A program made the position numbers and the translations under genes. Positions 1,329 to 23,810 of a stretch of DNA of 26,585 bases are shown one piece after another. Source of the stretch: an uncultured bacterium (GTDB lineage Bacteria; NPL-UPA2). The first letter of the stretch is position 1, and each line of letters starts with the position of its first letter. Below the pieces are notes generated by a model, which was not told where the DNA came from, searched no databases, and saw only the letters and a list, made by a program, of their open reading frames with translations. Location of the stretch: positions 1 through 26,585 of the forward strand of contig CAZVBB010000001.1 of assembly GCA_964625285.1 (NCBI GenBank). Reading direction: 5' to 3'.

Positions 1329-1434
1329 AGTGTACCAGTACACCAGTCACCAGAGCACCAGTTTATAAGTTAACAAGTTCACAAGTTTACCGTTCTGGGT
1401 TCTGAATCTTTAAACCTTTGAACTTCTAAACCTT
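1329..1434. repeat. Degenerate 7-8-mer tandem repeat tract
   Basis: CACCAGT, ACAAGTT and AACCTTTG-like units; shares ACCGTTCTGGGTTC with the tract at 5830-5950. Confidence 0.7.
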
Positions 1435-1447
1435 TCCCCTCTTTATT

Positions 1448-1984
1448 TCAAAAAAAGATGCTCCCTCGTATATTTCCCTGAATGATAATTTTTTTAATTT
1501 CTTCTTCTTCAGTGAAGTAGATTGTTATTTTATCCCCATAAAGAATGTTTTTTCCTCGCTGTATCTTTACGCTTCCCTCAAGGACTATGAGCAGTTTTTC
1601 TGGCTCATATAGCATCATGTCGGAATGATGGATAATTATCTCCTCTTCCAGGCTAATTACCCCGTTTCCTTCTTCAATCTCCATCTTTTCAGTTTCCTGC
1701 TCCCACTTTCCTTGCCTGCCTGCAAGCTCAATGAAATGCTCACTTTTCGGGAACAACCTCTTAATTTTGGGTTCTTCTATCACGACAGTTCTGTCCTGCA
1801 AGAGGGTGGCAGAAGCTCCACTTAACTGGAGCACTGGCTCTCCTCCCTCAACTCTCATATGAGAAAATTCTATTACTCTATCTCCAATTCCTTCTCGAAG
1901 AGGTAGCTCATCGCCTTTTGCAAAAAAGAATCCATTCCCTGTGAAAATTACCACCAGCCCCATATAAAGAAGCCGCTTAAACAT
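1448..1984 (-). CDS. LptC/LptA (OstA-like beta-jellyroll) LPS export protein
   Basis: N-terminal hydrophobic segment, IEEPKI and L.GSVKIQRG.N.LYGDKITIY motifs, position right after kdsC. Start moved to ATG 1984 to avoid overlapping kdsC. Confidence 0.6.
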   Translation of the reverse strand: MFKRLLYMGLVVIFTGNGFFFAKGDELPLREGIGDRVIEFSHMRVEGGEPVLQLSGASATLLQDRTVVIEEPKIKRLFPKSEHFIELAGRQGKWEQETEKMEIEEGNGVISLEEEIIIHHSDMMLYEPEKLLIVLEGSVKIQRGKNILYGDKITIYFTEEEEIKKIIIQGNIRGSIFF

Positions 1985-1986
1985 TT

Positions 1987-2535
1987 TCAGCTTTGTCCCA
2001 TTGAACGCATTTCCAATATTTTTTTCCATTTCCCTTGCGATTTAAGTATGAGCTCTATTATCTCACGCACAGCACCTTGCCCACCAGAAAGATGAGTTAC
2101 ATAAGTAGCTTTTTTCTTTACTTCTTTACAGGCATTGGGAACGCTTGCCGCAAACCCTGCCCTTCTCATAATAGATAGGTCAAGAATGTCATCACCAATA
2201 TAAGCTACTTCCATATCATTTAATCCATACTTTTTAAGAAGTTCTTTGTAGGGTTCTTCTTTTTTACTCACTCCCTGATATACATCATCTATACACAACT
2301 CTTGTGCTCTTTTTTCGGTTGCTCTGGAGAAACGACCAGAGATGAGTGCTGTCTTTAGCCCGGCACTTCTGGCAAGCACCATTCCCTCTCCATCAAGAAC
2401 ATTAAAAAATTTAAATTCCTCATTGTTGCTTCCTATAACAATTCTCCCATCAGTAAGCACTCCATCTACGTCCATAACAAGCATTTTTATTTGTCTTGCC
2501 TTATCTATTATTTTTTTCGTCATTCTCTTTCTCAT
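1987..2535 (-). CDS. kdsC: KDO-8-phosphate phosphatase (HAD family)
   Basis: MDVDGVLTDG, FNVLDG, IGDDILD and GGQGAVRE motifs. Confidence 0.93.
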   Translation of the reverse strand: MRKRMTKKIIDKARQIKMLVMDVDGVLTDGRIVIGSNNEEFKFFNVLDGEGMVLARSAGLKTALISGRFSRATEKRAQELCIDDVYQGVSKKEEPYKELLKKYGLNDMEVAYIGDDILDLSIMRRAGFAASVPNACKEVKKKATYVTHLSGGQGAVREIIELILKSQGKWKKILEMRSMGQS

Positions 2536-2563
2536 ACAAGTGCATTAAACGTATTTCGTTTTA

Positions 2564-2660
2564 AGGGGTCTCTGAAAAAATACCCAGAGACCTCAAAAAA
2601 TCTGTGTAATCCATATTTTATCTGTGTAATCAGAGATTTCGGACTTTTTCAGAAATCTCT
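2564..2660. repeat. Double-hairpin repeat family, copy 2 (reverse orientation), overlapping the kdsA 3' end
   Basis: AGGGGTCTCTGAAAAAATACCCAGAGACCTC ... AGAGATTTCGGACTTTTTCAGAAATCTCT, with two ATCTGTGTAATC units between. Confidence 0.8.
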
Positions 2661-3508
2661 TTAACAATTTTATCTATTTCTTTTAATTTCTCCAGAAGTG
2701 GTTTCAATTCATCTGGAGTAAGCATATTTTGCCCATCACAGGGAGCAGTTTTTGGCTCAGGGTGAACTTCAAAAAAAAGTCCATCGCAGCCAGCAGCAAC
2801 TGCTGCGCGGGCAAGAACTTCTGCATATTTCTTTTCTCCTCCTGAAAAATCACCACCACTTCCAGGAAGTTGCGTACTATGGGTAGCATCAAAAATGACC
2901 GGGTAACCCAAGCTTCTCATTATTGGAAGTGAGCGCATGTCAACAATCAGATTGTGGTAACCGAAGGATGTTCCTCTTTCAGTGAGGATAATATTCTCAT
3001 TTCCACCCGACCTTACTTTTTTAATAACATTTTCCATATCTTCGGGAGCGAGAAACTGTCCTTTTTTGATGTTGACTGCCTTACCACAATGTCCAGCCGC
3101 CAGTAACAGAGCTGTCTGGCGGCAGAGAAATGCAGGGATTTGAATCAGATCCAGCGTCTCAGCTGCCAGCTTTACTTCTTCCTGGCAGTGAACATCAGAT
3201 GTAACAGGAACTCCAACCTCTTTCTTTACTCTCGCAAGAATTTTCAACCCATCTTTTATCCCTGGACCCCGAAACGAATCAATTGATGTGCGATTGCCCT
3301 TATCGTAAGATGCCTTAAAAATAAATGGCATTCCAATTTCTTCACTTATCTTTTTTATCCTCTGAGCTATTTCAAGAGAAAGGGCTTCACTTTCAAGAAC
3401 GCAGGGACCAGCAATAAGCACCAGTGGACTTGCGCTTCCGATTGACACACCCCCTACTCTTACTTGCTTCTGCGCAATAAATTCTTGATTATTGATATTT
3501 GGCTTCAT
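2630..3508 (-). CDS. kdsA: KDO-8-phosphate synthase
   Basis: IAGPCVLE, FKASYDKGNRTS, QIPAFLCRQT, KKGQF, ERGTSFGY, DATHS and FFEVHP motifs. Confidence 0.96.
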   Translation of the reverse strand: MKPNINNQEFIAQKQVRVGGVSIGSASPLVLIAGPCVLESEALSLEIAQRIKKISEEIGMPFIFKASYDKGNRTSIDSFRGPGIKDGLKILARVKKEVGVPVTSDVHCQEEVKLAAETLDLIQIPAFLCRQTALLLAAGHCGKAVNIKKGQFLAPEDMENVIKKVRSGGNENIILTERGTSFGYHNLIVDMRSLPIMRSLGYPVIFDATHSTQLPGSGGDFSGGEKKYAEVLARAAVAAGCDGLFFEVHPEPKTAPCDGQNMLTPDELKPLLEKLKEIDKIVKEISEKVRNL

Positions 3509-4463
3509 TGAGTTCTTCTATGGAAACAGTAGCCGTGCCCATTTTCCCCACAACTATCCCGGCAGCAAGATTTGCCAGAGACGCTGCTTCCTGCAAAGTA
3601 GCTCCACAGGAGAGGGTAAGGGCAAGAGTTGCCACAACGGTATCTCCTGCTCCGCAAACATCATAAACCTCTCGAGCAATGGTAGGAATATGGACAATCC
3701 CTCCATTCTTCTCAAGCAGACACATGCCATCTTCCCCTAATGTAACTAACACTGCTTCTTTAACTATCTTACTAAGAATCTGCCGACCCGCATCTTCTAT
3801 TTCTTTTTTTTCTTTGACCTTCATCCCAATAAATATTTCAGTTTCCTGCCTGTTTGGAGTAATAATACTTGCACCCTTATATAATGAAAAATCTCTCCTT
3901 CCAGGGTCAACAATTATTCTTTTCCCCGTTTCAATAATTGTTCTGGAAAGCTCTTGTGTTATTACACCATTGCCGTGATCTCCGACAATGATTACTTCAA
4001 TATCATTGAGATGCTTAAGACAATATGCAGAAATACTCTCCCTGACGGAGCCAGTAACTTCTCGTTTCTTTTCTTTGTCAATTCGCGCTAATTGCTGTTG
4101 CTGGGCAATGATACGGGTTTTTGTTGTTGTTGAATATTCATCAAGAATCATTAATCCCTGTGTGTCAATACCCTTTTCTTTCAGTTTCTTACAGAGAATT
4201 TTTCCATAAAGGTCATCCCCTATTACGCCACTGAGCAGGGCATTTCCTCCGAGCATGCGAATGTTATTAGCAATATTAGCCGCTCCTCCTGGCATAAATG
4301 ATTCTTTTGTCACTTCAACGACGGGGATTGGAGCCTCACGAGAAATACGAGAAACCTCTCCCCAAAGAAATTCATCTACCATAACATCGCCCACTACAAG
4401 GACTTTCCCCTCATGAAAGCGAGAAATTATCTCTCTTTTCCTATGTTCATTAAGAATTTTCAC
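3489..4463 (-). CDS. rfaE1: D-glycero-beta-D-manno-heptose-7-phosphate kinase (RfaE domain I / HldA)
   Basis: VGDVMVDEFLWG..SRISREAPIPV, GGAANIA, TPNR.E and DVCGAGDT motifs. Confidence 0.92.
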   Translation of the reverse strand: MKILNEHRKREIISRFHEGKVLVVGDVMVDEFLWGEVSRISREAPIPVVEVTKESFMPGGAANIANNIRMLGGNALLSGVIGDDLYGKILCKKLKEKGIDTQGLMILDEYSTTTKTRIIAQQQQLARIDKEKKREVTGSVRESISAYCLKHLNDIEVIIVGDHGNGVITQELSRTIIETGKRIIVDPGRRDFSLYKGASIITPNRQETEIFIGMKVKEKKEIEDAGRQILSKIVKEAVLVTLGEDGMCLLEKNGGIVHIPTIAREVYDVCGAGDTVVATLALTLSCGATLQEAASLANLAAGIVVGKMGTATVSIEELNEAKYQ

Positions 4464-4949
4464 TTAAAGAGTTCTCCTATAGCTGGCTCCAATTCTTTCA
4501 AGGAGACTTTGCGTTGAACGCTTATTAACCTCTGAAGCAATCATTACCTCTCCACCGATCTTCTCCATAATCTTTCTTTCTGCTATTTCCTTCCTCCGGT
4601 AATCTCCACCTTTCACTAAAATATGAGGTTCTAACAAGCTAATTAGCTCCTCAGTGGTATCTTCAGGAAATATAATTACATAGTCAACGAAATAAAAAGA
4701 AGAGAGGATTTCTGCTCTCTCTTCCTGAGGGACAACAGGCCTCTTGTTTCCTTTAAGTTTCCTTGTGGAGCTGTCACTATTTACAGCTACAATCAGTATG
4801 TCTCCTTTTCCTTTTGCTTCTCTCAGATAGCGAATATGCCCAATGTGGATAAGATCAAAACATCCATTGGTAAAAACTATTTTTTTTCCGACTTTTTTTT
4901 CATATTTAATAATCCCTGTTAATTCATTTCTGTCAACGACCCTACCCAT
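4464..4949 (-). CDS. rfaE2: D-glycero-beta-D-manno-heptose-1-phosphate adenylyltransferase (RfaE domain II / HldC)
   Basis: FTNGCFDLIHIGH, VAVNSD.S...LKG..RP and LVKGGDY motifs. Confidence 0.93.
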   Translation of the reverse strand: MGRVVDRNELTGIIKYEKKVGKKIVFTNGCFDLIHIGHIRYLREAKGKGDILIVAVNSDSSTRKLKGNKRPVVPQEERAEILSSFYFVDYVIIFPEDTTEELISLLEPHILVKGGDYRRKEIAERKIMEKIGGEVMIASEVNKRSTQSLLERIGASYRRTL

Positions 4950-4951
4950 TT

Positions 4952-5006
4952 AACTCTACCTCTTACTTCTCACTTATAGTTTATAGTTTATAGCGTATAT
5001 AGCTTA
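4952..5006. repeat. Heptamer tract (TTATAGT-like)
   Basis: CTTACTT CTCAC TTATAGT TTATAGT TTATAGC GTATATAGC TTA; overlaps the DUF3108 stop codon. Confidence 0.55.
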
Positions 5007-5777
5007 TGACTTATTACTTACCTCTCTGTTAATCAGCATTATCCACACCAGACCAAGAGCGCCATCCCCTCTGATGAGAAGGGGCAGCCTGTATTTATCA
5101 TCGCTAAACCATATTTGAACCTTGCTTCCTTCCTTAAAAAAGTCTCCTAACCCCACTCCTTCAGGGGTAGACTCAACAACAATTATATTTCTTCTGCGCC
5201 ATTTTCTTCTCTCTAAAGTCTCAAATTTAGCTTCTATGTTATGTTGCCCTGTACTAATATTCACGAAAATTGACTCTCCAACATTAAGTGGCCCTGTCCT
5301 CAGGTAATAAAAGGCGGTAGAGAGTACGTCTCTGGCATCAGGAGCGATAGAAACAGAGCTGAACGTCACATCATTATGAAATCTTTCTGCTACCTCCTGC
5401 TCCCGGTCAAAAATAACGAGCCTGCTTCTTTTCTCATTTCTTATCTCTTCTGTGCTCCTATAAGCAACAGGCAGAAGAGTATTTTTATCAATTAATGATT
5501 CTGATATATTGACCAGCGGGTATAGGAGTGAAATAGGAAAGAAAGTGCGCGAGGTAGTAAGGAGGAAATAGACCTCCTGCTCCTGCCACTTCGTTTTTCC
5601 TGCTTCCATAGTTATGGTCCCCACTGGCACTCCAAAATGAACCCGAAAAGTAAGTTTTTCTCCTACAGGAAATTCCTTCCTCTCCCAGTGCGGTGGTGAG
5701 TAAGCATCATAGGAAAGAGTACCCCCCCCAGAAGCAATGGCAAGGAATACCGCTACTCCAATCATCTTAATTTTCAT
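5004..5777 (-). CDS. DUF3108-like exported protein
   Basis: Signal peptide, GEKL.FRVHFG.PVGT..M, and C-terminal IWFSDDKYRLPLLI typical of DUF3108. Confidence 0.7.
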   Translation of the reverse strand: MKIKMIGVAVFLAIASGGGTLSYDAYSPPHWERKEFPVGEKLTFRVHFGVPVGTITMEAGKTKWQEQEVYFLLTTSRTFFPISLLYPLVNISESLIDKNTLLPVAYRSTEEIRNEKRSRLVIFDREQEVAERFHNDVTFSSVSIAPDARDVLSTAFYYLRTGPLNVGESIFVNISTGQHNIEAKFETLERRKWRRRNIIVVESTPEGVGLGDFFKEGSKVQIWFSDDKYRLPLLIRGDGALGLVWIMLINREVSNKS

Positions 5778-5829
5778 CTAAATCATCCGTATTTTACAAT
5801 CCCTAGTAAAAAGGGATCAAAGTCTCCAA

Positions 5830-5950
5830 TGCACCAGTCCACCGTTCTGGGTTCCGGGTTCACTGTTCTGGGTTCTGGGTTCTGGGTTCTGAACCTTTGA
5901 ACTCCGAACCTCTGAACCCTGAACCCCTAAACCTTTGAACCCTTGAATCC
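5830..5950. repeat. Mirror-image heptamer arms (GGGTTCT)n / (GAACCCT-like)n
   Basis: TTCTGGGTTCCGGGTTC...TTCTGGGTTCTGGGTTCTGGGTTCTG is followed by roughly complementary GAACCTTT/GAACTCC/GAACCCT units. Confidence 0.85.
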
Positions 5951-5987
5951 TTTTCTCACTCTTTACGGATTATATCATTGGCTATTT

Positions 5988-7042
5988 TTATGTCAATAAT
6001 AAGCGCAGCTTTTCAGCTACTTCGGAAACTGTTATTTCTCGGATGCAGGAGATATGGGAACAGTTCTTTTTCCAGCAAGAAAGACAAGGAAGGTCATTCT
6101 TAATAACAATATTTCCCTCTCCATAGGGACCATTTCTAATTGGATCGGTTGGACCATAGAGCCCGATAACCTTTTTCCTTAACGCTGTTGCCAGATGCAA
6201 GGGGCCAGTATCTGAGGCGACCAGTACTTCACACCTCTCAATAAGTGCAATTAATTCCCCTAATGTAGTTGGAGGGGAGACGATTGGAGCTGAATGAGAA
6301 AGGTTTTTAATTTTCTCTGCATCCTTTCTTTCTCCCGGTCCATAAGTGATAATAACGGATACGTCAGTAAAATTTGTCTTAATTTTATCAGTTAGAAGGG
6401 CATATTTTTTTAGTGGCCATCTCTTGGTCAGCCAGGTAGCTCCAGGGTGAAGAATGACTATTTTTCGTCTATTATCTATCTCTTTCTTTAAAAATGCATC
6501 AATATACTTTTTCTCTGCCTCGCCGGTGGTAATTCCAAAAGAAATTTCTCCTATTTCAGCTCCCACCCGCCGTGCAAAGTTGAGATTTTTATCAACAATA
6601 TGAGATGCTCCACCCTCACTTACTTTAAAATTCGTAAAAATGGTGCTCGGCCATTCTACTCTGAAACTGCCTGCCTCAAAACCCAATCTTATTGGAGTCC
6701 GGCTTAGCCAAGCTAATACCCCTCCCCTCATATCTCCCTGTAACTCAAGCAAGAGGTCATATCTATCTGCCTTTAATTTCCTGATAAGCTGAAGAAGATG
6801 TTTAAGCATAGTTGGAATTGGCTCATTTTTTTTGAAGATGATTACTGAGTTTAAGGCTGGATGCCCACTTAATATATCCTCCAGTCCAGCACGAACAAGC
6901 CAGGATATGTGAGCATTAGGAAATCTTTCCCTCAGAGCATTAAGAGTGGGCAGAGCATGAACAACATCACCTAAGGAGCTAAGCTTAATAATGAGGATTC
7001 GCTCATTTTTTTTGTTTTTAAGTATTTCTTCCAGGAATTCAT
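5988..7042 (-). CDS. Glycosyltransferase family 9 (LPS heptosyltransferase, WaaC/WaaF-like), with an apparent frameshift near the 5' end
   Basis: The frame of ORF 5988-6809 stays open upstream through RILIIKLSSLGDVVHALP (about 7001-6951) to a TGA at 7068-7070 without ATG/GTG/TTG. The ATG at 7042 is one base out of frame. C-terminal HPGATWLTKRW and DTGPLHLA.A motifs. Confidence 0.88.
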
Positions 7043-7060
7043 CTCTCCTTTGCTCTTTTA

Positions 7061-7120
7061 CAGGCTGTCACAAAACACGCTCCAGCCTGTAATCAAGGGC
7101 GGCACTTTTGTGACGCCCTA
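7061..7120. mobile_element. 60-bp MITE, copy 1, 7-bp TSD
   Basis: TIRs CAGGCTGTCACAAAA / TTTTGTGACGCCCTA (12/15). Flanked by TCTTTTA at 7054-7060 and 7121-7127. Near-identical copy at 16940-17000. Confidence 0.85.
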
Positions 7121-7603
7121 TCTTTTAGCCTTGAATTTTTTCTTTGAAGTGGGGATAAATTTTCTTTTTAATGTTCCCCCAAACTCCTCTGCCCTTCTAA
7201 TGTCTCCTTCATCAGGTTTTCCTTTGTTAATTCCCCCGATGAGTTTTAATGGTCCATTTGTATCAAATCCTTTACAGAAGAATTCTCCGACAATGTCAAA
7301 TCCCTTTTTTAATAATCTCTTTTTTAGTGACCTGTGCAGGAGCCATTTTACTATTATCCCTGAGGTTGAGAAAATAAATGCTTTTTTGTTCTTTGAGTCA
7401 GGCAATCTATCTACGAGATTTAGGATAGTTCTGTGATGCCTCCAATAATAAATCCCCGAGCCAAAGCCAATCAGATCATATTCCTGAATACTATTCACTT
7501 CCTTTGGCTTTAATAGTTTTGCTCCGAGAGTCCTGGATATTGACACGGCAATCTTTTCGGTGTTGCCATGATGAACCGAAATACATACTACCAATGCTTT
7601 CAT
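7118..7603 (-). CDS. Flavodoxin family protein
   Basis: SVHHGNTEKIA, DLIGFGSGIY, FIFSTSG, GEFFCKGFDT.G and NKG.PDEGD motifs; GGAGG 5 nt before ATG 7603. Confidence 0.85.
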   Translation of the reverse strand: MKALVVCISVHHGNTEKIAVSISRTLGAKLLKPKEVNSIQEYDLIGFGSGIYYWRHHRTILNLVDRLPDSKNKKAFIFSTSGIIVKWLLHRSLKKRLLKKGFDIVGEFFCKGFDTNGPLKLIGGINKGKPDEGDIRRAEEFGGTLKRKFIPTSKKKFKAKR

Positions 7604-7677
7604 TTTCACCTCCAAATTACAAGCTGTCCTCTTTGATCAAAAAAGTCACCGGTGCACCAGTCAATAGGCGGGACATC

Positions 7678-7876
7678 CTTGTCCCGCTCTTTAAAATTAC
7701 AAGCACCAAACCACAAATTACAAACAAGCACCAATGACCAAAATTACAAACAATGGATGAGATTCTTCGGGCTTCGCCCTCAGAATGACAACAAGGTTGT
7801 CAGTTTTGAACATTTGGTGATTTGAATTTGTGATTTGTTTGTGATTTGGAATTTGTATATTGTGATTTTAGCATTG
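7678..7876. repeat. Composite heptamer-arm element, copy 1, with a central GTCATT/AATGAC-family module
   Basis: 7678-7719 is identical (42 bp) to 22034-22075. A/C-rich left arm, T/G-rich right arm. Module 7757-7802 occurs inverted at 22075-22120. Confidence 0.88.
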
Positions 7877-7952
7877 CTCTATGCCCTATGCTCTATGCCC
7901 TCTGCCCCTTGAACCCTTGACCCCTTTCTTATAGAAATTTTTCAAATTCCTG

Positions 7953-8600
7953 CTATAAAATTTTCTCGGCAAGCCCGCGGGCATTCTCCATGCTTATATC
8001 CAGCTCTTCATTGCTTAATCCTGCTCCATAACCTATTTTCTCCATCATTTCAGGAGCTATTAAATCTAATGAAGAATGAGCATCACTACCAATAATAAGC
8101 CCTGTCCTCGCCTCTCTGGTAATTTTTGCAATGTGTCCATTGGTGAGTGAGTGTCCCTTGCGACATGATATTTCCAGAAAAATACCCTTCTCTGCTGCAA
8201 GTCTTGCCTCTTCCAAGCTAATTAATCCGGGATGAGCAAGAATATCTATCTCCGCCTTCAGTGCCATCCTGTTTGTTCCCGAAAGTACTGGTTCAACGAT
8301 CGTCTCGCCATGAACAAGAATCAGCTTTGCTCCTAATTTTCGTGCTCTCTTTGCTGCATCTGCAATTGATTCAGCAGGAATGTAAGTTAACTCTGCTCCG
8401 GGAATTACCTTGATGCGCATAGTTTTATTCAATTCTGCACACACCTTCACAAGTTGAGGAATGACAGTTTCAATATTTGAGATGTCAATGTGGTCAGTGA
8501 TTCCCAGTATTGTATATCCTTTATCTTCAAAACGCCGGGCAAGTTCTGAAGGGGCAAATGCCCCATCGCTCAAAAAAGAATGGCTATGCAAATTAATCAT
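7953..8600 (-). CDS. PHP-domain phosphoesterase (histidinol-phosphatase-like family)
   Basis: NLHSHS..SDG, GITDH, ILAHPG and GSDAH metal-binding motifs. Confidence 0.85.
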   Translation of the reverse strand: MINLHSHSFLSDGAFAPSELARRFEDKGYTILGITDHIDISNIETVIPQLVKVCAELNKTMRIKVIPGAELTYIPAESIADAAKRARKLGAKLILVHGETIVEPVLSGTNRMALKAEIDILAHPGLISLEEARLAAEKGIFLEISCRKGHSLTNGHIAKITREARTGLIIGSDAHSSLDLIAPEMMEKIGYGAGLSNEELDISMENARGLAEKIL

Positions 8601-8618
8601 TATTCCTTATTCCTTCCG

Positions 8619-8978
8619 TCAGGATAACTCATTTTCTTCTAATCCAAAATGATGTCCAATTTCGTGCTCAAGAACATCCTGGATGTTTTGCCTTAGCTCT
8701 CTCTCAGTCCTAGAAATTGCCTCAATTGATTTCTGGTAGATGATTATAGTATCAGGAAGAACATTCCCATATTCTCTTCCTCTATTTTTAAGTGGAATGC
8801 CCTTGTATAGCCCTAAAAGAAGATGCGAATGAGCTGTCTTTCGTTCATTTAGAACTTCTGTTGATGGCACATCTTCTACTATTATTTCAGAATTTTCTAT
8901 TCTACTCACAAATTCCAGTGGCAATTTATCTATTGCCTCTTCCACCAATTTTTTAAAATCTTCTCTTTTTAAATTCAA
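8619..8978 (-). CDS. Zincin-like metallopeptidase family protein (TTG start)
   Basis: LLGLY.GIPL, LPD.I.IYQ and VLEHEIGHHFG (HEXXH) motifs. Confidence 0.85.
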   Translation of the reverse strand: MNLKREDFKKLVEEAIDKLPLEFVSRIENSEIIVEDVPSTEVLNERKTAHSHLLLGLYKGIPLKNRGREYGNVLPDTIIIYQKSIEAISRTERELRQNIQDVLEHEIGHHFGLEENELS

Positions 8979-9037
8979 GCTTTCTAACTTATTGTAATTA
9001 CTTAAATTAAATACAACTTGTTAATAAATCACTTTAA

Positions 9038-9448
9038 CTACTTTTGGCAGTCAAGATAGTCTTGCAGTATCTCCTGCGCTGCTACTTTATGAATAATCTG
9101 CTTGCGCTTTGTCCGTGAAAGATTAGCTTCCAACAAGTGTCTTTCAGCGGCAGAAGTCGTTAGTCGTTCATCCCATGTCTCCACCGGTAATTCCACCTTA
9201 TGGCAAAATTTAGCAATAAATTCAATCACTTTTTTTGCTTGTTTTCCTTCCTTCCCGCTCATCTCAAGCGGAAGTCCAACTATCACTTTCTTAACTTGAT
9301 ATTCTCTTGCAATCTCTCCCACCCTATTAAAATCCTTTGCCAAAGAAGACCGCTTAATTACTTCAATAGCTTGAGCAATTAAGTGAAGCTCATCACTCAC
9401 AGCAATTCCAATAGTTTTATCCCCGACATCTAAGCCTAATATACGCAT
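9038..9448 (-). CDS. ruvX: Holliday junction resolvase-like RuvX/YqgF
   Basis: ILGLDVGDKTIGIAVSD, VGLP and WDERLTT motifs; downstream of alaS. Confidence 0.93.
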   Translation of the reverse strand: MRILGLDVGDKTIGIAVSDELHLIAQAIEVIKRSSLAKDFNRVGEIAREYQVKKVIVGLPLEMSGKEGKQAKKVIEFIAKFCHKVELPVETWDERLTTSAAERHLLEANLSRTKRKQIIHKVAAQEILQDYLDCQK

Positions 9449-9459
9449 TTTAGTTAATA

Positions 9460-9800
9460 CAATTTTTAAATTTTAAATCCGAAATCCTAAACAAATCCAA
9501 AACCTTAAACTCTAAACAAATCCCAAATTACAAATCCCAAATTACAAACAAGCACCAATGACCAAAAGACTGCTTCGCAGTCATCCTAAGCCCTTCGCTT
9601 CCTGTCATTCTGAGCGAAGCGAAGAATCTCATGGCGCTCAGGGCAGGCTCCGCGAAGGATCTCATAAGATTGCCACACCCTCACTTTGTTCGGGTTCGCA
9701 ATGACAGCTCTGTTGTCATTTTTACTTTGTAATTTTGCATTTTGCATTTTGCATTTTGCATTTTGATTTTTGATTTTCATTTACCCTCTGCCCTTTGCCT
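9460..9800. repeat. Compound repeat: heptamer arms around nested GTCATT...AATGAC palindromes
   Basis: AAATCCC/AAATTAC units, GTCATTCTGAGCGAAGCGAAGAATCTC, AGATTGCCAC...CGCAATGAC, and (ATTTTGC)4 at 9732-9759. Confidence 0.85.
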
Positions 9801-13484: not shown

Positions 13485-13488
13485 ATTT

Positions 13489-13742: not shown

Positions 13743-13818
13743 AGCCATAAAAATAAATCCTTTCTCTTTAATTCTTCAGCAGAATGAGGTAAGTATTCAG
13801 TAAACCCAGTCATTATTT

Positions 13819-13869: not shown

Positions 13870-13953
13870 ATCAATAACAATAAAGACTTCACTCAAGTAT
13901 TTATCAGCCAACGGTGTTCTACTAGAGTATTTACAGAATTAAAAAGGATTATA

Positions 13954-14463
13954 TCAAACTGAATTGAATATGTCAAATGTGGAGACCTGACCCTCTATAT
14001 CTGCTATCACCTGAGATATAACTTCTGTGGAGAATCCTCTTCTTCTTAGATAGGAGTAAAGACGGCGATTACGGGTTATAGGGTCAAGATTTCTATAGCT
14101 CTTTAGTTTGTTATGTGCCAGGGCAAGAGCGAGACTTTCTTCGCTTCTTTCTGCAAAAATACTCTCGCATACTTCAGTAATAATCTCAGGTGCAATTCCT
14201 TTCTGCCATAACTCTTGAGAAAGAAGTTCTCTTCCTATAGGTTTGTGGGAAGTGCGTGCTTGTGCCCATGAGCGAGCAAATGCTCTGTCATTGATAAGGT
14301 TGAGCTCGCTTAAGTGCTGCAACACCACCTTGATAGTTGCATCTTTGTATCCTTTTACTCTTAGTCTATCAGATAGTTCTTTGAAGCTTCGCTGGCGATA
14401 AGTAAGGAAGTTAAGCGCACACTCTTTTGCTTTTTTTTCTTCCTCAGAGGTAATCGCTGTCAA
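13954..14463 (-). CDS. recX: Regulatory protein RecX (TTG start)
   Basis: ALNFL.YR.RS..EL..RL..KG, LINDRAFA, ELWQKGI and L.RRGF motifs; context downstream of recA. Confidence 0.9.
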   Translation of the reverse strand: MTAITSEEEKKAKECALNFLTYRQRSFKELSDRLRVKGYKDATIKVVLQHLSELNLINDRAFARSWAQARTSHKPIGRELLSQELWQKGIAPEIITEVCESIFAERSEESLALALAHNKLKSYRNLDPITRNRRLYSYLRRRGFSTEVISQVIADIEGQVSTFDIFNSV

Positions 14464-14465
14464 TT

Positions 14466-15887
14466 CTATTTCGCCTCAATAGCAAAAAATAAATTGCGTC
14501 CTTCCCTGCGGACCTGCAAGAGAACCCCATTTCCACTTTCAATTCTTTCTACCACTTGCCTATAGTCTTCTAAATTTCCAATTGAGATGTGATTTATTTC
14601 TTTGATAATATCTCCTATTCTTACTATACCTGCCGCTGGACCATCTGGTTTAACACCTACAACTATAACCCCTTCTTCCCTATCAGCCTCCCTTACCTTA
14701 AAGCCGAGCTTTTCTTCAATTATTCTTTCTCCTCTTATCATCGCCAGTTCCTCTGTAGCCGGCATCTCGTCTAATTTAACGATGATTTCTTTTTCATTGC
14801 CATCTCTGATAATTTTTACTGTTGCTCTTTTCCCCGCTCCGGCTCTGGCAACCTCGCGCTGTAAATCATGAATGGTAAGAACCTCTTTTCCTTCAAATTC
14901 TTTGATTACATCTCGCGCTTTAAGTCCTGCTCTTGCCGCTGGCCCTCCAGGAATAACTTCATTAATCAATACTCCTCTATCATCAGGCTGAATGATTACT
15001 CCAAGCCAGCCTCTTTTGACTATTCCTTCTTTGCGAAGTTGATTATAAATATCTTTTACCATGTTAATGGGAATGGCAAAGCCAAATACCATTGGCATGC
15101 CTGCACCACGGGTTATAATAAATGTATTCACCCCAATTACTTCGCCACGGCTGTTTAAGAGCGGGCCCCCGCTACTTCCTGGGTGAATAGGGGCATCAGT
15201 CTGAATAAAGTCTTCAAAATGCACCATTCCAAATCCAGTGCGTCCCTTTCCGCTGATAATCCCTGCCGTTACTGTATGCTCAAGACCAAAAGGATTACCC
15301 ACGGCAATTGCCCATTCTCCCACCCTTATCTTCTCAGAATCGCCGAGACGCACTGTTGGCAGGTCTTCCGGAACATCAATTTTAATCATTGCCAGATCAG
15401 TAAGGGGGTCAGTACCTACGACCGTAGCCGGGATTCCTTTCTCGTGCCTGTATAGCCTTACCATTATCTCATCAACATCTCTAATCACATGATAGTTAGT
15501 AATAATGTAGCCATCTTTGTTTATAATAAAACCTGAACCTAATTCAGCAATCTGATGCTGAGGTGCTCTCGGCTCTCTTTCCCAATGCCGTCTGAATGGC
15601 CTGAAGAACTCGGGAAACATCTCCTCAAAGGGCCTAAAGAAGCGTTCCATCTCTCTATGTGGGTCAGCAACTCTCTGCGTGGTAATAATCTGGACAACAG
15701 ACGGCTTTACTTCTTCGGCAACCCTCACAAAGAGACTTTCTGTCTCTTCTAATTGTCGAGGTGCTGCCCAGATAAGTTCTGCTGGCTTTTCTATCCTTGC
15801 TGAAAAGGAATCAAAGCCAATGCCAGCAACTATTCCCAAAAGAAGCACAGGTACTAACCAAATTGCCGATACTCCTCTCTCTTTCAT
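14466..15887 (-). CDS. degP: Do/DegP/HtrA-family periplasmic serine protease with two PDZ domains
   Basis: GSGFII, TNYHV (His), D.LTDLA (Asp), GNPFGL and PGSSGGPL (Ser) motifs, plus two PDZ-like repeats. Confidence 0.92.
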   Translation of the reverse strand: MKERGVSAIWLVPVLLLGIVAGIGFDSFSARIEKPAELIWAAPRQLEETESLFVRVAEEVKPSVVQIITTQRVADPHREMERFFRPFEEMFPEFFRPFRRHWEREPRAPQHQIAELGSGFIINKDGYIITNYHVIRDVDEIMVRLYRHEKGIPATVVGTDPLTDLAMIKIDVPEDLPTVRLGDSEKIRVGEWAIAVGNPFGLEHTVTAGIISGKGRTGFGMVHFEDFIQTDAPIHPGSSGGPLLNSRGEVIGVNTFIITRGAGMPMVFGFAIPINMVKDIYNQLRKEGIVKRGWLGVIIQPDDRGVLINEVIPGGPAARAGLKARDVIKEFEGKEVLTIHDLQREVARAGAGKRATVKIIRDGNEKEIIVKLDEMPATEELAMIRGERIIEEKLGFKVREADREEGVIVVGVKPDGPAAGIVRIGDIIKEINHISIGNLEDYRQVVERIESGNGVLLQVRREGRNLFFAIEAK

Positions 15888-15889
15888 TT

Positions 15890-16912
15890 TTAACCTCCCG
15901 ATTCTGCTACTGATAGTCCAGCAGCTTTTTTTGTCTTGTTAGTAATTTCTGTGATGAGTTCTGGATGCTCTTTCAAGTAAATTATTGCTTTTTCCTGTCC
16001 ATGCCCGATTTTTTCCTTGTTGTAGGTGAGCCAGGAACCTGATTTTTCAACAATGCCATACTCTATGGCAGCATCAAGAATGCTCCCCTCCTTTGAGATT
16101 CCCTCACCATAAATGATATTAAATCTTGCCTCATGGAATGGAGCAGCAAGTTTATTCTTGGCAACCTTTACTCGCACTTGATTACCAATCTCCTTCGTTC
16201 CATCCTTAATTGGCTCCTTTCTGCGAATATCAAGTCGTATTGAAGCATAGAATTTGAGTGCTCTTCCGCCTGGAGTAACCTCTGGATTGCCAAACATTAC
16301 TCCAATCTTTTCTCTTATCTGATTGACGAATATGACCGATGTTTTTGATTTGCTGATAGCAGCGGTGAGCTTGCGCAGCACCTGAGACATCAAACGTGCC
16401 TGGAGACCCATATGGCTATCTCCCATCTCTCCTTCAATCTCAGAGCGTGGGACAAGAGCAGCTACTGAATCAATAACTATTACATCAACGGCATTTGACC
16501 GCACGAGTGTTTCCACTATTTCCATCGCCTGCTCCCCCCAGTCCGGCTGGGAGACAATAAGAGCATCTATATTTACCCCTAACTTTCGGGAATAATCCGC
16601 GTCGAGAGCATGCTCAACATCAATAAAAGCTGCTGTCCCACCCTGCGCCTGCGCCTCTGCCACGATATGAAGCGCCAATGTCGTCTTCCCCGAGGATTCA
16701 GGACCAAATATTTCTATCACTCTTCCTCTGGGAACGCCGCCAATTCCGAGTGCAATGTCAAGACTAAGCGCCCCGGTAGATATTCCTTCCACCTCTGCCG
16801 CTGCCTTACTTTGCCCCAGTCTCATAATTGAACCTTTACCAAACTGCTTCTCAATCTGAGAAAACGCCAGGTTAAGTGCACTTTCTTTATCAGCTCTTAT
16901 CTCTTCTACCAT
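15890..16912 (-). CDS. recA: Recombinase A
   Basis: [26 protein letters not shown] and [10 protein letters not shown] motifs. Confidence 0.99.
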
Positions 16913-16939
16913 CTTAATTCTCCTATCTTTTATTAGCTA

Positions 16940-17000
16940 CAGGCTGTCACAAAACACGTTCCAGCCTTGTGATCAAGGGCGGCACTTTTGTGACGCCCTA
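16940..17000. mobile_element. 61-bp MITE, copy 2, 11-bp TSD
   Basis: Same sequence as 7061-7120 except for a few substitutions and a 1-nt indel. TTTATTAGCTA at 16929-16939 and 17001-17011. Confidence 0.85.
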
Positions 17001-17004
17001 TTTA

Positions 17005-17583
17005 TTAGCTATTTTTGCCAATTTCCACTATATGAAGCGATGAATGTTGCGCTCCCTCCGGCTTGAGAATACTCTTCATTACCTTTATTTTTTTAGCCAT
17101 CAGTAAGCCTCCATCCCAATCTTCATTTGCCTTAATTGTTCTTATCAGTCCTTCTTTATTCTTTGCCGATCTCACCCTTCCAAGCGTCAGATGAGGATGG
17201 TAATCTCTCCCTTCTTCTGGAAACCCGCATCGCTTAAGAAGACCGCTAAGATTCTGACTGATAACGAAAAGTGTTTTACTTTCTTTTATACCTGCCCAGA
17301 TTACTCGCGGCCTCTTCAAGTCGGGAAAGACGCCTATCTTTGAGAGAAAAAGTTTAAACGGTTCAATATTACAGACAGAGTCTTCAGTCGCTTCAAAAAT
17401 AGGCTTCAGGTGAGAAACATAACCTAAAAATCTTAAGGTAAGATGAATGTTTTCAGGCACTACCCACCTAACGTCAGCGTCACACTTTTGTAATTTTTTC
17501 TGAATGTCAGCCAGCCTCTGCTGCACCTCCTCATCTATGTCTATGGCAATAAACACTCTATTTTTATCTTCGCTGTTTACCAT
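17005..17583 (-). CDS. thpR: RNA 2',3'-cyclic phosphodiesterase (2H phosphoesterase)
   Basis: FIAID, HLTLRFLG and PHLTLGR motifs. Probable start ATG 17583. Confidence 0.92.
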   Translation of the reverse strand: MVNSEDKNRVFIAIDIDEEVQQRLADIQKKLQKCDADVRWVVPENIHLTLRFLGYVSHLKPIFEATEDSVCNIEPFKLFLSKIGVFPDLKRPRVIWAGIKESKTLFVISQNLSGLLKRCGFPEEGRDYHPHLTLGRVRSAKNKEGLIRTIKANEDWDGGLLMAKKIKVMKSILKPEGAQHSSLHIVEIGKNS

Positions 17584-17771: not shown

Positions 17772-17792
17772 AATCTATATTTTTTAGCATGT

Positions 17793-17975
17793 AGAGATTT
17801 CCGAAAAAGTCCGAAATCTCTGAAATCGGTGTAATCTGACCCGAAGGGTCATTCCGAGCGAAGCGAGGAATCTCAATGAGATTGCTTCGGCAAGTTCCCT
17901 CGCTGTCGCTCGGGACAAGCCTCGCAACGACGTCGGTGTAATCAGAGGTATCTGAATATTTTTTTCAGAGACCTC
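17793..17975. repeat. Double-hairpin repeat family, copy 4, interrupted by a GTCATT...AACGAC palindrome
   Basis: Hairpin A 17793-17821, insert 17837-17932 flanked by TCGGTGTAATC (17826-17836, 17933-17943), hairpin B 17944-17975. Confidence 0.85.
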
Positions 17976-18493: not shown

Positions 18494-18657
18494 CAAGAAA
18501 ATTCGTCGCTTCGCTCCTCATTTCCTTCCCTAAGGGGCTCCGCCCCTCGGGCGTCCGCCTGAGGCGGACTGTCACCCCATGAGGGAAACCAGATTGTTTC
18601 CCTATAAACTTCTCCTAATCCGCATAGGAAAGGTTTTATACTTTCCTATGCTACAAG
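18494..18657. repeat. 164-bp multi-hairpin repeat, copy 1
   Basis: Direct repeat of 19422-19565 with an extra 20-bp hairpin segment at 18533-18552. Confidence 0.92.
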
Positions 18658-19421: not shown

Positions 19422-19565
19422 CAAGAAAATTCGTCGCTTTGCTCCTCATTTCCTTCCCTAATCCGCCTCAGGCGGACTGTCACCCCATGAGGGAAACCAG
19501 ATTGTTTCCCTATAAACTTCTCCTAATCCGCATAGGAAAGATTCTATACTTTCCTATGCTACAAG
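19422..19565. repeat. 144-bp multi-hairpin repeat, copy 2
   Basis: Near-identical to 18494-18657 apart from the 20-bp segment. Confidence 0.92.
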
Positions 19566-21644: not shown

Positions 21645-21968
21645 TCACTCCCGCATTACCTCCGTTACCCATTTAAGATAGCTTGAGTTGACATCTTCTA
21701 CTTTCAGCAGCACTATCTCCGGAACCTCATAAGGATGGATTTCTTCTAATCTTTTAAATGTCGAGCTTAGAAGCTTATCCGTTGTTTTCAAAAAAAGTAT
21801 GCACTCATCGTCTGTCTGGATTTTCCCTTTCCAGAAATACTTGCTTTTTACTGAACCAACCCTGTTCACACAGGCAACGAGCTTTTCTTCAAGCAATAGA
21901 TTTGTAATCTCTTCTGCCTTGTCTTCAGGACAAGTAGTCATAATCAGCTTCAATTTTCCCTCTGCCAT
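21645..21968 (-). CDS. cutA: Divalent-cation tolerance protein CutA
   Basis: LLEEKLVACVN, S.YFWKGKI and HPYEVPEI motifs. Confidence 0.93.
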   Translation of the reverse strand: MAEGKLKLIMTTCPEDKAEEITNLLLEEKLVACVNRVGSVKSKYFWKGKIQTDDECILFLKTTDKLLSSTFKRLEEIHPYEVPEIVLLKVEDVNSSYLKWVTEVMRE

Positions 21969-21999
21969 GACACCCCTCTTCTTTTATCAAGCTATCTCT

Positions 22000-22024
22000 G
22001 TCGGGGTAAACTCTGCCCGACTAC
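22000..22024 (-). repeat. Single GTAG-type REP
   Basis: Minus strand GTAG-TCGGGCAGAGTTTACCCCGAC, an imperfect palindrome. Confidence 0.5.
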
Positions 22025-22033
22025 CATCAAATT

Positions 22034-22300
22034 CTTGTCCCGCTCTTTAAAATTACAAGCACCAAACCACAAATTGACAACCTTGTTGTCATTCTGAGGG
22101 CAAAGCCCGAAGAATCTCATGTCATTACTACTAACAGTGAGATTCCTCGCTCCGCTCGGAATGACTTGCAGAGCAAGTCAGTTTTGAACATTTGGTAATT
22201 TGAATTTGTTTGTGATTTGACACAAAGTGTCTCACTTAATTTAAGGTTACAGAAAATTATAGCCGTGATGGGAATTTGTATATTGTGATTTTAACATTGC
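22034..22300. repeat. Composite heptamer-arm element, copy 2
   Basis: Shares the 42-bp left end, TCAGTTTTGAACATTTGGT and GGAATTTGTATATTGTGATTTTA with 7678-7876. Confidence 0.88.
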
Positions 22301-22331
22301 ATTTTACCCTCTGCTCTCTACTCTCTACTCT

Positions 22332-23810
22332 CTACTCTCTGCTCTCTGCTTTTCCTTCCAGCGCCCATTGACAAGCCCCAGTAATGGTAACCGACACTAA
22401 ATCTCCAATTATACCTTTTTCTCCTTCGAAAACAACAACTTTATTTGTCCTTGTCCTACCTAATAATTTGAAAGGAGCTTTTTTCTTTGTTTCCCCAGCC
22501 AGCACCTCAACTCTTCTGCCAATCAGGTTTTCATTTCTCCTAACACTTATTTCCCCCTGAACCTCCTGGAGCCTCTTAAGCCTGTCCTTCTTTACGTTTT
22601 CAGGGACTTCATTCTTCATCTTTGCTGCCTCAGTTCCTGGACGAATAGAATATTTATACATAAATGCGTTGTCAAATTCAACCTTTCTTACTATATCAAG
22701 TGTATCTTCAAATTCCTTCTCGCTTTCCCCGGGAAAGCCAACAATAAGGTCTGTCGTTATTGATAATCCTGGAATGGTTTCTCTTGCCTTTGAAATAAGG
22801 TTTAGATAAAAATCTCTCGTGTATCCCCTGTTCATCAGTGCAAGGATTCTATTTGAGCCGGACTGCAGTGGAAGGTGAAGATGCTCGCAGACCTTTGGTA
22901 AGTCAGAAACCGCCTTCAGTAAGCGCGGAGTTACCCCTGATGGATGAGAAGTAATAAAGCGGATGCGTTTCACTCCATCAATACCGTTAATCTCTTCAAG
23001 CAAATCTGCAAGGTCAATATTTTTCCATCCATTGGTCGTTTTCAATCTGGATTTATATGAAGTAATATCCTGCCCAAGAAGCAAAAATTCCACAAAACCC
23101 TGTTCTGTTAGATGGACTATTTCATCAACAATTTCTTCAAGTCCCCTACTCTTCTCCTTTCCTCTCAGATATGGAACCACGCAATATGAGCAGAATTTAC
23201 TACATCCTCTCATAACTGCTAACGATGTGCTAATCTTTCCATCTTTTATGATTGGAAGATTAGTAAACCCCGTTAGAAAGGATGGGGCTTTGAACCCCAC
23301 CCTTTCTTGAAATAAGGATGGCAATTTATATTCATCCCCACCCCCAGGGGTGGGGCTTTCTAACGGGGTAAATGGCAGTTTGTCACTTTCTCCAATATCA
23401 ACAATTCCCTTTGTTGCTTTCGCCTCATTCAAGAGCTCCCCTATTCGGTGGAAACTATGTGTCCCGCAAACCAGACTCACGGAAGGAAAGCGACGAATAA
23501 TTTTTGCCCCTTCTTTCTGAGCCATACATCCACACACCCCGATAGTTAATGGCTTACTCTCTCTAATCTTTGATAATCGCCCCAGTTCACTCCACACCTT
23601 ATTTTCAGCGTGCTCTCTTACGCTACAAGTATTAAGTAAAACCACATCAGCCCTTGAGGCATCATCTATAAGACCATATCCATCGCCGGTTAAAATACCC
23701 GCCATAATCTTTGAATCATACTCATTCATCTGACAGCCGAATGTCTTAATATAAACCGAGGGCTTTCTTTGGGCGAAAGTCTTCATAGGTTTACGGTTGT
23801 TTTTAGGCAT
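22332..23810 (-). CDS. miaB: tRNA-2-methylthio-N6-dimethylallyladenosine synthase MiaB, with a 35-aa MITE-derived insertion
   Basis: TFGCQMNEYDS, LNTCSVRE.AE, GCSKFCSYC (CX3CX2C), HLPLQSGS, TDLIVGFPGE and TRAM domain. Confidence 0.96.
   Translation of the reverse strand: MPKNNRKPMKTFAQRKPSVYIKTFGCQMNEYDSKIMAGILTGDGYGLIDDASRADVVLLNTCSVREHAENKVWSELGRLSKIRESKPLTIGVCGCMAQKEGAKIIRRFPSVSLVCGTHSFHRIGELLNEAKATKGIVDIGESDKLPFTPLESPTPGGGDEYKLPSLFQERVGFKAPSFLTGFTNLPIIKDGKISTSLAVMRGCSKFCSYCVVPYLRGKEKSRGLEEIVDEIVHLTEQGFVEFLLLGQDITSYKSRLKTTNGWKNIDLADLLEEINGIDGVKRIRFITSHPSGVTPRLLKAVSDLPKVCEHLHLPLQSGSNRILALMNRGYTRDFYLNLISKARETIPGLSITTDLIVGFPGESEKEFEDTLDIVRKVEFDNAFMYKYSIRPGTEAAKMKNEVPENVKKDRLKRLQEVQGEISVRRNENLIGRRVEVLAGETKKKAPFKLLGRTRTNKVVVFEGEKGIIGDLVSVTITGACQWALEGKAESRE
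23268..23368. mobile_element. 101-bp MITE inserted in frame in miaB
   Basis: TIR CCCCGTTAGAAAG / CTTTCTAACGGGG; TAAA at 23264-23267 and 23369-23372; 101+4 = 105 bp = 35 codons. Confidence 0.92.

Follow-up and report, generated by a model that had tools for sequence, protein, structure and literature searches.

Intervening sequences of the 23S rRNA, described from Salmonella, Leptospira, Coxiella and other bacteria, are palindromic insertions with terminal inverted repeats that carry a gene of the S23p family (PF05635, TIGR02436). In Coxiella the inverted repeats at the termini pair into a stem that is cut in its middle by RNase III, the excised RNA decays fast, the S23p gene seems not to be translated, two or three tandem copies of the heptamer GACAGAT are present depending on the strain, and the origin of the intervening sequence is unknown (PMC4990558). 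Here we describe seven intergenic tracts, T1 to T7, in a 26,585-nt stretch of DNA (contig CAZVBB010000001.1, hereafter the window) from an uncultured bacterium of the NPL-UPA2 lineage. The tracts are built from tandem units of 7-8 nt, and five of them are laid out as palindromes in which the second arm is the approximate reverse complement of the first. We consider it rather probable that they represent members without a gene, or reduced derivatives, of a group of small insertion elements that occurs across bacteria, resembles the intervening sequences and has arms made of repeats.

The window contains 4,287 nt (16%) of intergenic DNA, and all of its genes lie on one strand; amongst them Pfam identifies TsaE, LptA, KdsC, KdsA, a heptosyltransferase, RuvX, AlaRS, RecX, HtrA, RecA, HflX, MiaA, CutA and MiaB. 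An initial annotation, made from the letters alone, had pointed out degenerate 7-8-nt tandem tracts at seven sites, most with mirrored arms, and had read them as an element of conserved architecture and variable sequence. Using Tandem Repeats Finder (TRF), arrays with a period of 7 or 8, or multiples thereof, were found at all seven sites (Table 1). At a score of at least 40 the window contains ten such arrays, all of them intergenic, against a mean of 0.43 and a maximum of 2 in 40 dinucleotide-preserving shuffles. The mirror layout was tested by folding each tract against dinucleotide shuffles, which gave z-scores of -3.1 to -5.9 for T3 to T7; a second run on both strands had a similar outcome (T3: -4.7 on the plus and -4.8 on the minus strand). 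The symmetry claimed for most tracts thus holds for T3 to T7, which possess the long paired terminal inverted repeats of a 23S intervening sequence, and fails for T1 and T2, which do not. The stem of T3 is a run of 6-bp helices with single mismatches between them, while T4, T5 and T7 have other hairpins in their centres, as had been noted. A simple microsatellite would consist of one unit type of local origin, with no partner arm and no dispersal, a description that fits T2 alone. All tracts sit between co-directional protein-coding or tRNA genes and none lies in a 23S rRNA gene; a search of the window against Rfam, also at permissive thresholds, returned two tRNAs and otherwise only matches at chance level.

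The window has its best genome match in 'candidate division NPL-UPA2 bacterium Unc8', one contig of which shares synteny with positions 1123-17508 (86-92% identical DNA). This acetogen, whose genome measures about 1 Mb, comes from hyperalkaline serpentinising groundwater (PMC6305446), and the exact RecA of the window also occurs in serpentinite-type metagenomes. At orthologous spacers, Unc8 lacks T1, T3, T4 and T5: each gene pair is conserved, the coding alignment reaches the tract boundaries, and spacers of 123 to 356 nt in the window correspond to spacers of 3-14 nt in the sister species (Table 1). T2 is missing as well: its spacer measures 6 nt in Unc8 and, in three relatives at a greater distance (contigs L011, L013 and L015), 3-13 nt, and T2 is therefore derived in the lineage of the window. 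Those relatives carry 7-8-nt tracts of their own at other spacers. Unc8 itself has four copies of the T6 octamer (AGGCACAA) within the coding region of AlaRS (positions 5860-5893 of its contig), a heptamer-hairpin-heptamer insert within IspG (4090-4165) and, in a non-syntenic spacer (4640-4800), a pair of GTCATTGCGAG-type hairpins with a 22-nt tandem repeat; evidently, repeat-armed inserts can persist in coding regions. In the window, the AlaRS frame enters the right arm of T5 and continues there for about 28 codons (9722-9805), past the end of homology with Unc8, giving a protein of 925 aa versus 895 aa, and the (TACTCTC)n array of T7 supplies the last codons of MiaB (22332-22350). As both gene ends read tract arrays, the insertions have reshaped both C-termini.

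Logan contigs break at the tracts, as would be seen if these were assembly or chimera artefacts of repeat-rich metagenome contigs. We give this explanation next to no credence: the tracts recur without gaps, at 99.97-100% identity, in four assemblies made independently of one another, with one SRA run and three JGI samples as sources, and are thus not artefacts of assembly; the four are of the same strain as the window and silent on polymorphism within the population. A second alternative is that the tracts are regulatory hairpins selected by the host, such as terminators, attenuators or mRNA stabilisers of the kind formed by repetitive extragenic palindromes (REPs) and BIMEs, and are neither selfish nor mobile. 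The location of every tract between co-directional genes and the length and stability of the stems would fit such a function, and Jackman and Mulligan in 1995 reportedly described structured heptamer-repeat spacers in the nif operons of cyanobacteria. We nevertheless think it unlikely, since the sister species has an identical gene order and structure-free spacers of 3-14 nt, the same arms recur in unrelated bacteria and within rRNA (see below), and the entry of tracts into the ends of AlaRS and MiaB, together with related units inside AlaRS and IspG of Unc8, resembles insertion rather than design. Tracts may have been domesticated by the host at a later stage.

The unit sequences, which had been described as differing between sites, do so only in part. 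T4 and T7, whose flanking genes are unrelated, are 98% identical over a 45-nt left end, 97% over the 33-nt right inner arm and 84% over a 56-nt right outer part; T5 and T4 have in common the 29-nt arm core AAATTACAAACAAGCACCAATGACCAAAA, and T1 and T3 share CACCAGT...CCGTTCTGGGTTC...AAACCTTTGAAC as well as parts made of GGGTTCT. With several tracts in shared multi-copy families, arm sequence is less variable than the initial annotation held, and judged by these identities the tracts are dispersed families rather than independent inventions. T7 holds the 50-nt central module of T4 in inverted orientation (96% complementary), its small hairpin is altered on both sides relative to that of T4 (GACTTGC/GCAAGTC versus GACAAC/GTTGTC), and the outermost arrays of the two tracts differ in copy number and unit sequence. 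The sequence of the window was found in only two DNA runs, both from one aquatic metagenome study of 2015. As a proxy for copy number we added up the depths of contigs that are alike to 90% or more, single-copy depth being about 40 in the first run and about 25 in the second, and obtained an excess of about 12-70x over the tract bins in the two runs (values for the first run in Table 1). Some contig joints represent variant copies in which arms of T4 are joined to other centres; no indel variants were seen in the tracts in the two DNA runs. The depth indicates tens of copies per family in the source community, most simply in this genome.

Arms of this kind were said in the initial annotation to flank small four-helix-bundle or GxxExxY genes in other genomes. 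We analyzed the best 80 loci of the four-helix-bundle family, from many phyla, retrieved with a query consensus and then verified as family members (TIGR02436 117-146 bits with a cut-off of 24; PF05635 148 bits), and 80 loci of the GxxExxY family (PDDEXK_3, 141-156 bits). When the 260 nt upstream of the TIGR02436 genes were compared with the reverse complement of the 260 nt downstream, the median score was 15, while direct comparison scored 9 and shuffled sequence 8.6; the same test at the GxxExxY loci gave 18, against 9.5 and 8.5. Both types of gene are therefore bracketed by mirrored arrays, as stated there, with the correction that the GxxExxY arms have a period of 8 or 9 and not 7. Within 300 nt of the TIGR02436 genes (48 kb) there are 65 arrays of period 7, compared to 25 in the other 179 kb, which amounts to a 9.7-fold enrichment; period 14 occurs 31 times near and 11 times far, period 9 three times near and 27 times far. 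At the GxxExxY loci the near and far counts are 69 and 16 for period 8, 38 and 22 for period 9, and 0 and 13 for period 7. The period thus goes with the cargo gene. At TIGR02436 loci the upstream unit returns downstream as its reverse complement (for instance CGTATTG/CAATACG) and is generally specific to the locus; GxxExxY units are partly conserved (CGCAAAGG/CCTTTGCG and CACAGAG/CTCTGTG), and GGCGCAAA-type units also flank PDDEXK_3 genes. The TIGR02436 genes are oriented like their upstream neighbour in 74 of 78 cases and like their downstream neighbour in 66 of 74, at a distance of about 60 nt, and with such close co-oriented neighbours they lie in operons in sense direction, comparable to the window tracts between co-directional genes.

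The tracts of the window display the same mirrored layout, T3, T4, T5 and T7 with period 7 and T6 with period 8, and the units of T2, T5 and T6 match arms that flank cargo genes elsewhere (contigs L258, L201 and L329). The T2 unit matches in 19 of 20 positions a heptamer arm upstream of a four-helix-bundle gene (L258), the right arm of T6 matches in 19 of 20 an arm downstream of a GxxExxY gene (L329), and T5 units match arms beside four-helix-bundle genes. The arms of T6 are of the GxxExxY-bracketing type. The gene association emerged only with the genes as starting point: 1.2 Mb of loci centred on hairpins and arms contained no four-helix-bundle motif, and a duplex-energy screen for open reading frames (ORFs) with inverted arms was swamped by G+C content and uninformative.

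The arm shared by T4 and T5 is also found far outside this lineage. Other JGI metagenomes contain its exact 22-mer CAAACAAGCACCAATGACCAAA in 42 contigs, at 39 distinct places, next to genes of widely differing G+C content, some of the hosts being G+C-rich. In the great majority of cases it forms the inner part of a palindrome of the type (AAATYCC/AAGCACC)n ... loop or hairpin ... (GGAATTT/GGTGCTT)n, often wrapped by further layers of other heptamers, and a few copies have no obvious partner arm or are ended by a contig edge. One copy (contig L162) is located inside a bacterial 23S rRNA gene (Rfam LSU, 403 bits), the helices of which are interrupted four times, by insertions about 150-165 nt long or by heptamer tracts. 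Two of the insertion positions, in helices 9 and 25, we take to be classical intervening-sequence sites. Because this 23S gene holds the T4/T5 arm type, the type of tract seen in the window also occurs as an rRNA intervening sequence.

These observations also bear on the simplest alternative, namely that each tract is a plain slippage microsatellite that arose in place, with no element involved. Slippage would account for the differing unit and copy number in the outermost arrays of the homologous T4 and T7 and for T2 and in part T1, which are arrays without arms, and the number of heptamers does vary between Coxiella strains (PMC4990558). It builds no reverse-complement second arm (z of -3 to -6), however, gives neither arms that are 97-98% identical at unrelated loci nor a 12-70-fold excess in depth, and leaves unexplained both the 22-mer shared with unrelated metagenomes and a 23S gene and the dependence of the period on the cargo. 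As an account of the tracts it appears very improbable, and for T3 to T7 it is largely refuted. Of the three outcomes that the initial annotation had named as pointing to such microsatellites (symmetry no greater than in shuffled controls, no difference in presence or absence, no associated gene), none was obtained.

The central hairpins of T4, T5 and T7 are of the type GTCATTCYGAG...GARGAATCTCA and belong to a second family. The pattern GTCATTCYGAG-N5-12-GARGAATCTCA was found in at least 120 stretches of one-genome-per-species contigs; the figures that follow refer to the matches listed. Their hosts include bacteria of the candidate phyla radiation (CPR), Aquificota, Chloroflexota, Bacteroidota, Cyanobacteria, Acidobacteriota, Planctomycetota and others. 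Covariation of the Y and R positions is near perfect (100 T-A, 27 C-G, 1 C-A and 0 T-G), the apical stem varies in length and keeps its self-complementarity, and arrays of period 7 are enriched 2.5-fold near the hairpins. An inverted partner lies within 130 nt downstream in 53 of 118 copies, compared to 14 upstream, so that GTCAT-type hairpins form doublets, as REPs do. An arm followed by a hairpin doublet and a complementary arm, the complete layout, is present in a deltaproteobacterium, in a CPR bacterium and in a contig binned into a Desulfatirhabdium metagenome-assembled genome. Amongst the ORFs within 250 nt of 128 hairpins the sole recurrent family is a small GIY-YIG protein, present at three of them and absent among control ORFs, and no RAYT transposase was seen. 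The start codons of the three GIY-YIG genes (L019 4732-5127, L103 1131-1508 and L129 4664-5002) follow the hairpin by 0-27 nt. The C-terminal residues of the L103 protein resemble a translated variant hairpin, and the gene may therefore lie within an inverted hairpin pair, as RAYT genes lie between REPs. Judged by this arrangement, GIY-YIG is a candidate mobilising enzyme for the GTCAT-type family. None of the papers in the collection searched contains the hairpin sequence or its typical peptide read-throughs. A lone GTCATTCCGAGCGAAGCGAGGAATCTCA hairpin is present at 17848-17878 of the window, outside the listed tracts, in a 336-nt gap between the LigT-like and CinA genes.

Under the reading we favour, the element would have arms composed of short units in tandem, the second arm being the first in reverse complement, with one small gene between the arms of full-length members, either TIGR02436/PF05635 (7-nt units) or a GxxExxY PD-(D/E)XK nuclease (8-9-nt units); the class would take in the classical 23S rRNA intervening sequences. 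The elements appear to settle in transcription units, that is, in helices of rRNA and in the very small gaps that separate co-directional genes, with the gene-bearing ones in sense orientation. They would be transcribed together with the host RNA, and the paired arms would make up a long, imperfect stem, a probable substrate of RNase III; cutting there would free the element from rRNA and, in the window, split the cistrons of an operon. Insertion would be tolerable because the stem works as a processing site. In this NPL-UPA2 lineage the elements would have multiplied to tens of copies and widened spacers that in Unc8 measure 3-14 nt. GTCAT-type hairpins would later have invaded the apical loops of T4, T5 and T7, and array length would then drift by slippage, which explains the number of units and not the architecture. 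Speculatively, hairpin loops and very short spacers may be the preferred targets, as might be suggested by the nesting in the centres, by the insertions into rRNA and by the inserts that lie in frame in genes of Unc8. That the elements are mobile we infer from their distribution.

Several observations weigh against this reading. T1 (1325-1447) forms no convincing DNA palindrome (z of -0.2 on the plus strand and of -1.7 on the minus strand, the latter reliant on G-U pairs), and T2 (4950-5010) is a bare array without symmetry (z of +1.1 to +1.7). In a test of G-U pairs and strand asymmetry both strands folded about equally well, so that there is no sign of RNA being the selected form, and the sequence of the window occurs in 0 RNA runs. 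The window holds neither a cargo gene or remnant nor a candidate mobilising enzyme: tblastn with real four-helix-bundle, GxxExxY and GIY-YIG proteins returned a best E-value of 0.13 and nothing inside the tracts, and Pfam on 30 ORFs (essentially all long ones) with a motif scan detected no PF05635/TIGR02436 ORF, in agreement with the initial annotation. The T4-type arm has no fixed orientation relative to its neighbours. The polarity of T1, T3, T4 and T5 hangs on one sister genome, that of Unc8, which is streamlined to about 1 Mb and may have lost them; the spacer comparison covers T1 to T5, the T6 region being rearranged in Unc8 and the Unc8 contig ending before T7. The copy numbers derived from depth may include other organisms of the same metagenome. 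Finally, no target-site duplication was apparent by eye at the edges of T1, T3, T4 and T5 when compared with the empty Unc8 sites, no systematic search having been made.

This last point also counts against the possibility that the tracts are miniature inverted-repeat transposable elements (MITEs) of the ordinary kind, mobilised by a DDE transposase. A transposase fragment of the IS1595 type (ISXO2-like) lies at the edge of the window (59-511). Multiple copies, inverted ends and the lack of coding sequence are what such elements would show, and a separate 61-nt element of the window does have target duplications of 7-10 bp. Yet the arms are internally periodic, their period follows a small cargo gene that is not a transposase, and the transposase fragment is not linked to the tract ends, so that we regard a MITE origin of the tracts as improbable. 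The 61-nt element, a double hairpin (CAGGCTGTCACAAAACACG...GGGCGGCACTTTTGTGACGCCCTA), is present at 7067-7127 and 16948-17008 in copies 93% alike, with duplications (TCTTTTA; TTATTAGCTA) recognisable against the empty Unc8 sites and a summed depth of 2,326 in the first run (about 55x single copy); by these features it is to be classed as a true MITE-like insertion, distinct from the repeat-armed tracts.

Comparison with described repeats shows which parts of the picture are familiar. The tracts share with the 23S intervening sequences the palindromic build with long-stem terminal inverted repeats and the tandem heptamers within an arm (GACAGAT in Coxiella; PMC4990558), and the T4/T5 arm type is itself found in 23S. 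They differ in having no gene, in lying between protein-coding genes, in their much longer arm arrays and in the hairpin modules nested in three of them; co-transcription with the host RNA and excision by RNase III, both known for intervening sequences, would apply to the tracts in this organism by analogy. In heterocystous cyanobacteria, intergenic tandem heptamers also have small hairpins nested in them and in each other: the arrays of short tandemly repeated repetitive sequences (STRR) were reportedly described by Mazel in 1990, and the small dispersed repeats (SDR), hairpins nested in heptamer arrays, by Elhai in 2008. The canonical STRR units are CCCCAGT, TTGGTCA and CAACAGT. Of these, TTGGTCA is embedded in the T4/T5 arm (CCAATGACCAAA) and CACCAGT is one base off CCCCAGT, whereas most units of the window differ. 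The STRR hosts are heterocystous cyanobacteria, the host of the window in contrast belongs to a non-photosynthetic candidate phylum of the subsurface; a Nostoc-type cyanobacterium, which the STRR-like units might suggest, is ruled out by the gene content and by the synteny with Unc8. Publications on STRR and SDR are not known to link the arrays with cargo genes or rRNA intervening sequences.

Direct repeats of the heptamer TAACTGA occur in Beggiatoaceae, cyanobacteria and Bacteroidetes beside start codons, where a role in translation has been proposed (PMC4679880). Like the tracts they are intergenic heptamer arrays with units common to distant phyla and no evident mechanism of transfer, but their description mentions neither mirrored arms nor cargo genes (PMC4679880). 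Heptamer arrays in cyanobacteria, and an excess of them in bacteria generally, have been reported (PMC4692102; PMC4679880). The REP, BIME and REPIN elements of proteobacteria resemble the tracts as short extragenic palindromes that are multi-copy, lie between the genes of operons and often form inverted doublets, but the tracts lack the GTAG or CGTC tag and have arms of tandem units, which REPs do not. Cyanobacterial heptamer arrays, small hairpins nested in them and S23p-bearing intervening sequences are thus already known, and the class, taken in the initial annotation to be possibly unnamed, is not wholly so: its gene-bearing 23S members are the classical intervening sequences, and in cyanobacteria heptamer arrays go by the name of STRR. 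The collection of papers searched yielded none on the bracketing of TIGR02436 or GxxExxY genes in general by mirrored arrays, on the dependence of period on cargo, on gene-less proliferation in a compact non-cyanobacterial genome or on the very wide spread of the GTCAT hairpin, and none on repeat arms under the names of these protein families. We know of no earlier report of any of the first four points. There is a fair chance that the tracts are the visible edge of a unified, still unnamed class.

The dependence of period on cargo suggests that the cargo protein reads or makes its own arms, and the GIY-YIG and PD-(D/E)XK cargo nucleases are the obvious suspects for the spread. A bolder reading, which we advance tentatively, is that STRR arrays, 23S intervening sequences, orphan four-helix-bundle and GxxExxY genes and gene-less palindromes are all one bacteria-wide selfish class residing in transcription units. 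The cargo protein would make or read the arms, with units of 7 nt in the case of the four-helix bundle and of 8-9 nt in that of the nuclease, and the class would spread unlike any known transposon, possibly by targeting hairpin loops and short spacers through a single-stranded intermediate. Heptamer arrays and rRNA intervening sequences, both dating from 1990, and the common genes annotated 'four helix bundle' and 'GxxExxY' were each unexplained alone, and are tied together here by numbers: the arrays would be the arms of elements carrying those genes, with a period that depends on the gene carried, and gene-less copies could multiply to fill the spacers of an otherwise compact genome. This raises the questions of whether the cargo protein binds or makes its own repeats, whether RNase III cuts the stems in mRNA as it does in rRNA, and what moves the elements. 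In practical terms, such tracts break metagenome assemblies, seed spurious ORFs, lengthen real ones (AlaRS, MiaB) and can sit in frame within genes.

Table 1. Repeat tracts of the window. Fold z-scores are given for T3 to T7 and those of T1 and T2 in the text; summed depth is that of the first run, with the approximate multiple of single-copy depth in brackets.
Tract	Position	Strand	TRF arrays	Folded interval (z)	Spacer, window/Unc8 (nt)	Summed depth	Structure
T1	1329-1434	.	1334-1390		123/14		arrays immediately following tRNA-Val: ACCAGTN x4, AAGTTNAC x4, GGGTTCT x2, then GAAYCTTTAAACC-type units
T1 right part							homologous to T3 (repeat families D12/D13)
T2	4952-5006	.	4974-5007				short array, TTATAGT x2.9 and TATAGCGTA x2; no mirrored arm
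T3	5830-5950	.	5844-5952	5825-5955 (-5.8)	210/3	1,067 (25x)	simple palindrome, with (GGGTTCT)n as left arm (5844-5891) and (GAACCYY)n as right arm (5891-5950); apex empty
T4	7668-7926	.	7699-7926	7650-7930 (-5.1)	337/9	left and centre bin 2,964 (70x); right bin 493 (12x)	composite: hairpin GCGGGAC/GTCCCGC 7668-7687; left arm 7693-7752; right arm 7803-7870
T4 centre	7753-7802						reversed GTCAT-type hairpin 7759-7789 and small hairpin GACAAC/GTTGTC
T4 outer array	7875-7926						CTATGCC/CCCTTGA
T5	9464-9808	.	9464-9548, 9717-9782	9455-9810 (-4.2)	356/6	right bin 750 (18x)	composite: left arm 9464-9567 with AAATTACAAACAAGCACCAATGACCAAAA at its end; right arm (ATTTTGC)n 9713-9782; outer array 9781-9808
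T5 centre	9568-9712					centre bin 2,037 (50x)	module of about 145 nt with several GTCAT-type hairpins; GTCATTCTGAGCGAAGCGAAGAATCTCA at 9604-9631
T6	13520-13601	.	13520-13601	13510-13610 (-5.9)			period-8 palindrome: left arm (AGGCACWA)x4 13520-13553; 20-nt loop; right arm (CTTTGTGCC)x3 13574-13601
T7	22031-22350	.	22305-22347	22025-22355 (-3.1)			T4-family copy with nested inserts: left arm 22034-22075; small hairpin 22163-22179
T7 centre hairpins							forward GTCAT-type 22076-22119 and reversed 22139-22165, an inverted doublet
T7 right side							right arm 22180-22219; 51-nt insert 22220-22270; right arm resumes 22271-22300; outer array (TACTCTC)n 22305-22350

The window contains further repeats. 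A palindromic repeat family, AGAGATTTCNGAAAAAGTCNGAAATCTCT adjoining CAGAGGTCTCTGAGTATTTTTTCRGARACCTCT, occupies four more spacers (1056-1117, 2559-2668, 12534-12608 and 17787-17975), and its copy at 2536-2629 is missing from Unc8, where the spacer measures 30 nt. A direct repeat of about 164 nt (18494-18657 and 19422-19565, 85-98% identical in parts), which includes the palindrome GCATAGGAAAG...CTTTCCTATGC, brackets a NUDIX gene and a small ORF. An array of 2.4 copies of CTATAAACAAATAGTTCACAAT (period 22) at 25588-25639, in the 265-nt gap before the last gene, is absent from the initial annotation. Amongst the genes, that of the HtrA-like protease has about 215 nt (14475-14690) that cannot be aligned to the Unc8 gene and may be an extra or diverged PDZ segment. 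Two neighbouring HEPN/nucleotidyltransferase gene pairs at 23803-25584 are probably toxin-antitoxin modules, and a related HepT-like/nucleotidyltransferase pair is present in the relative L011.

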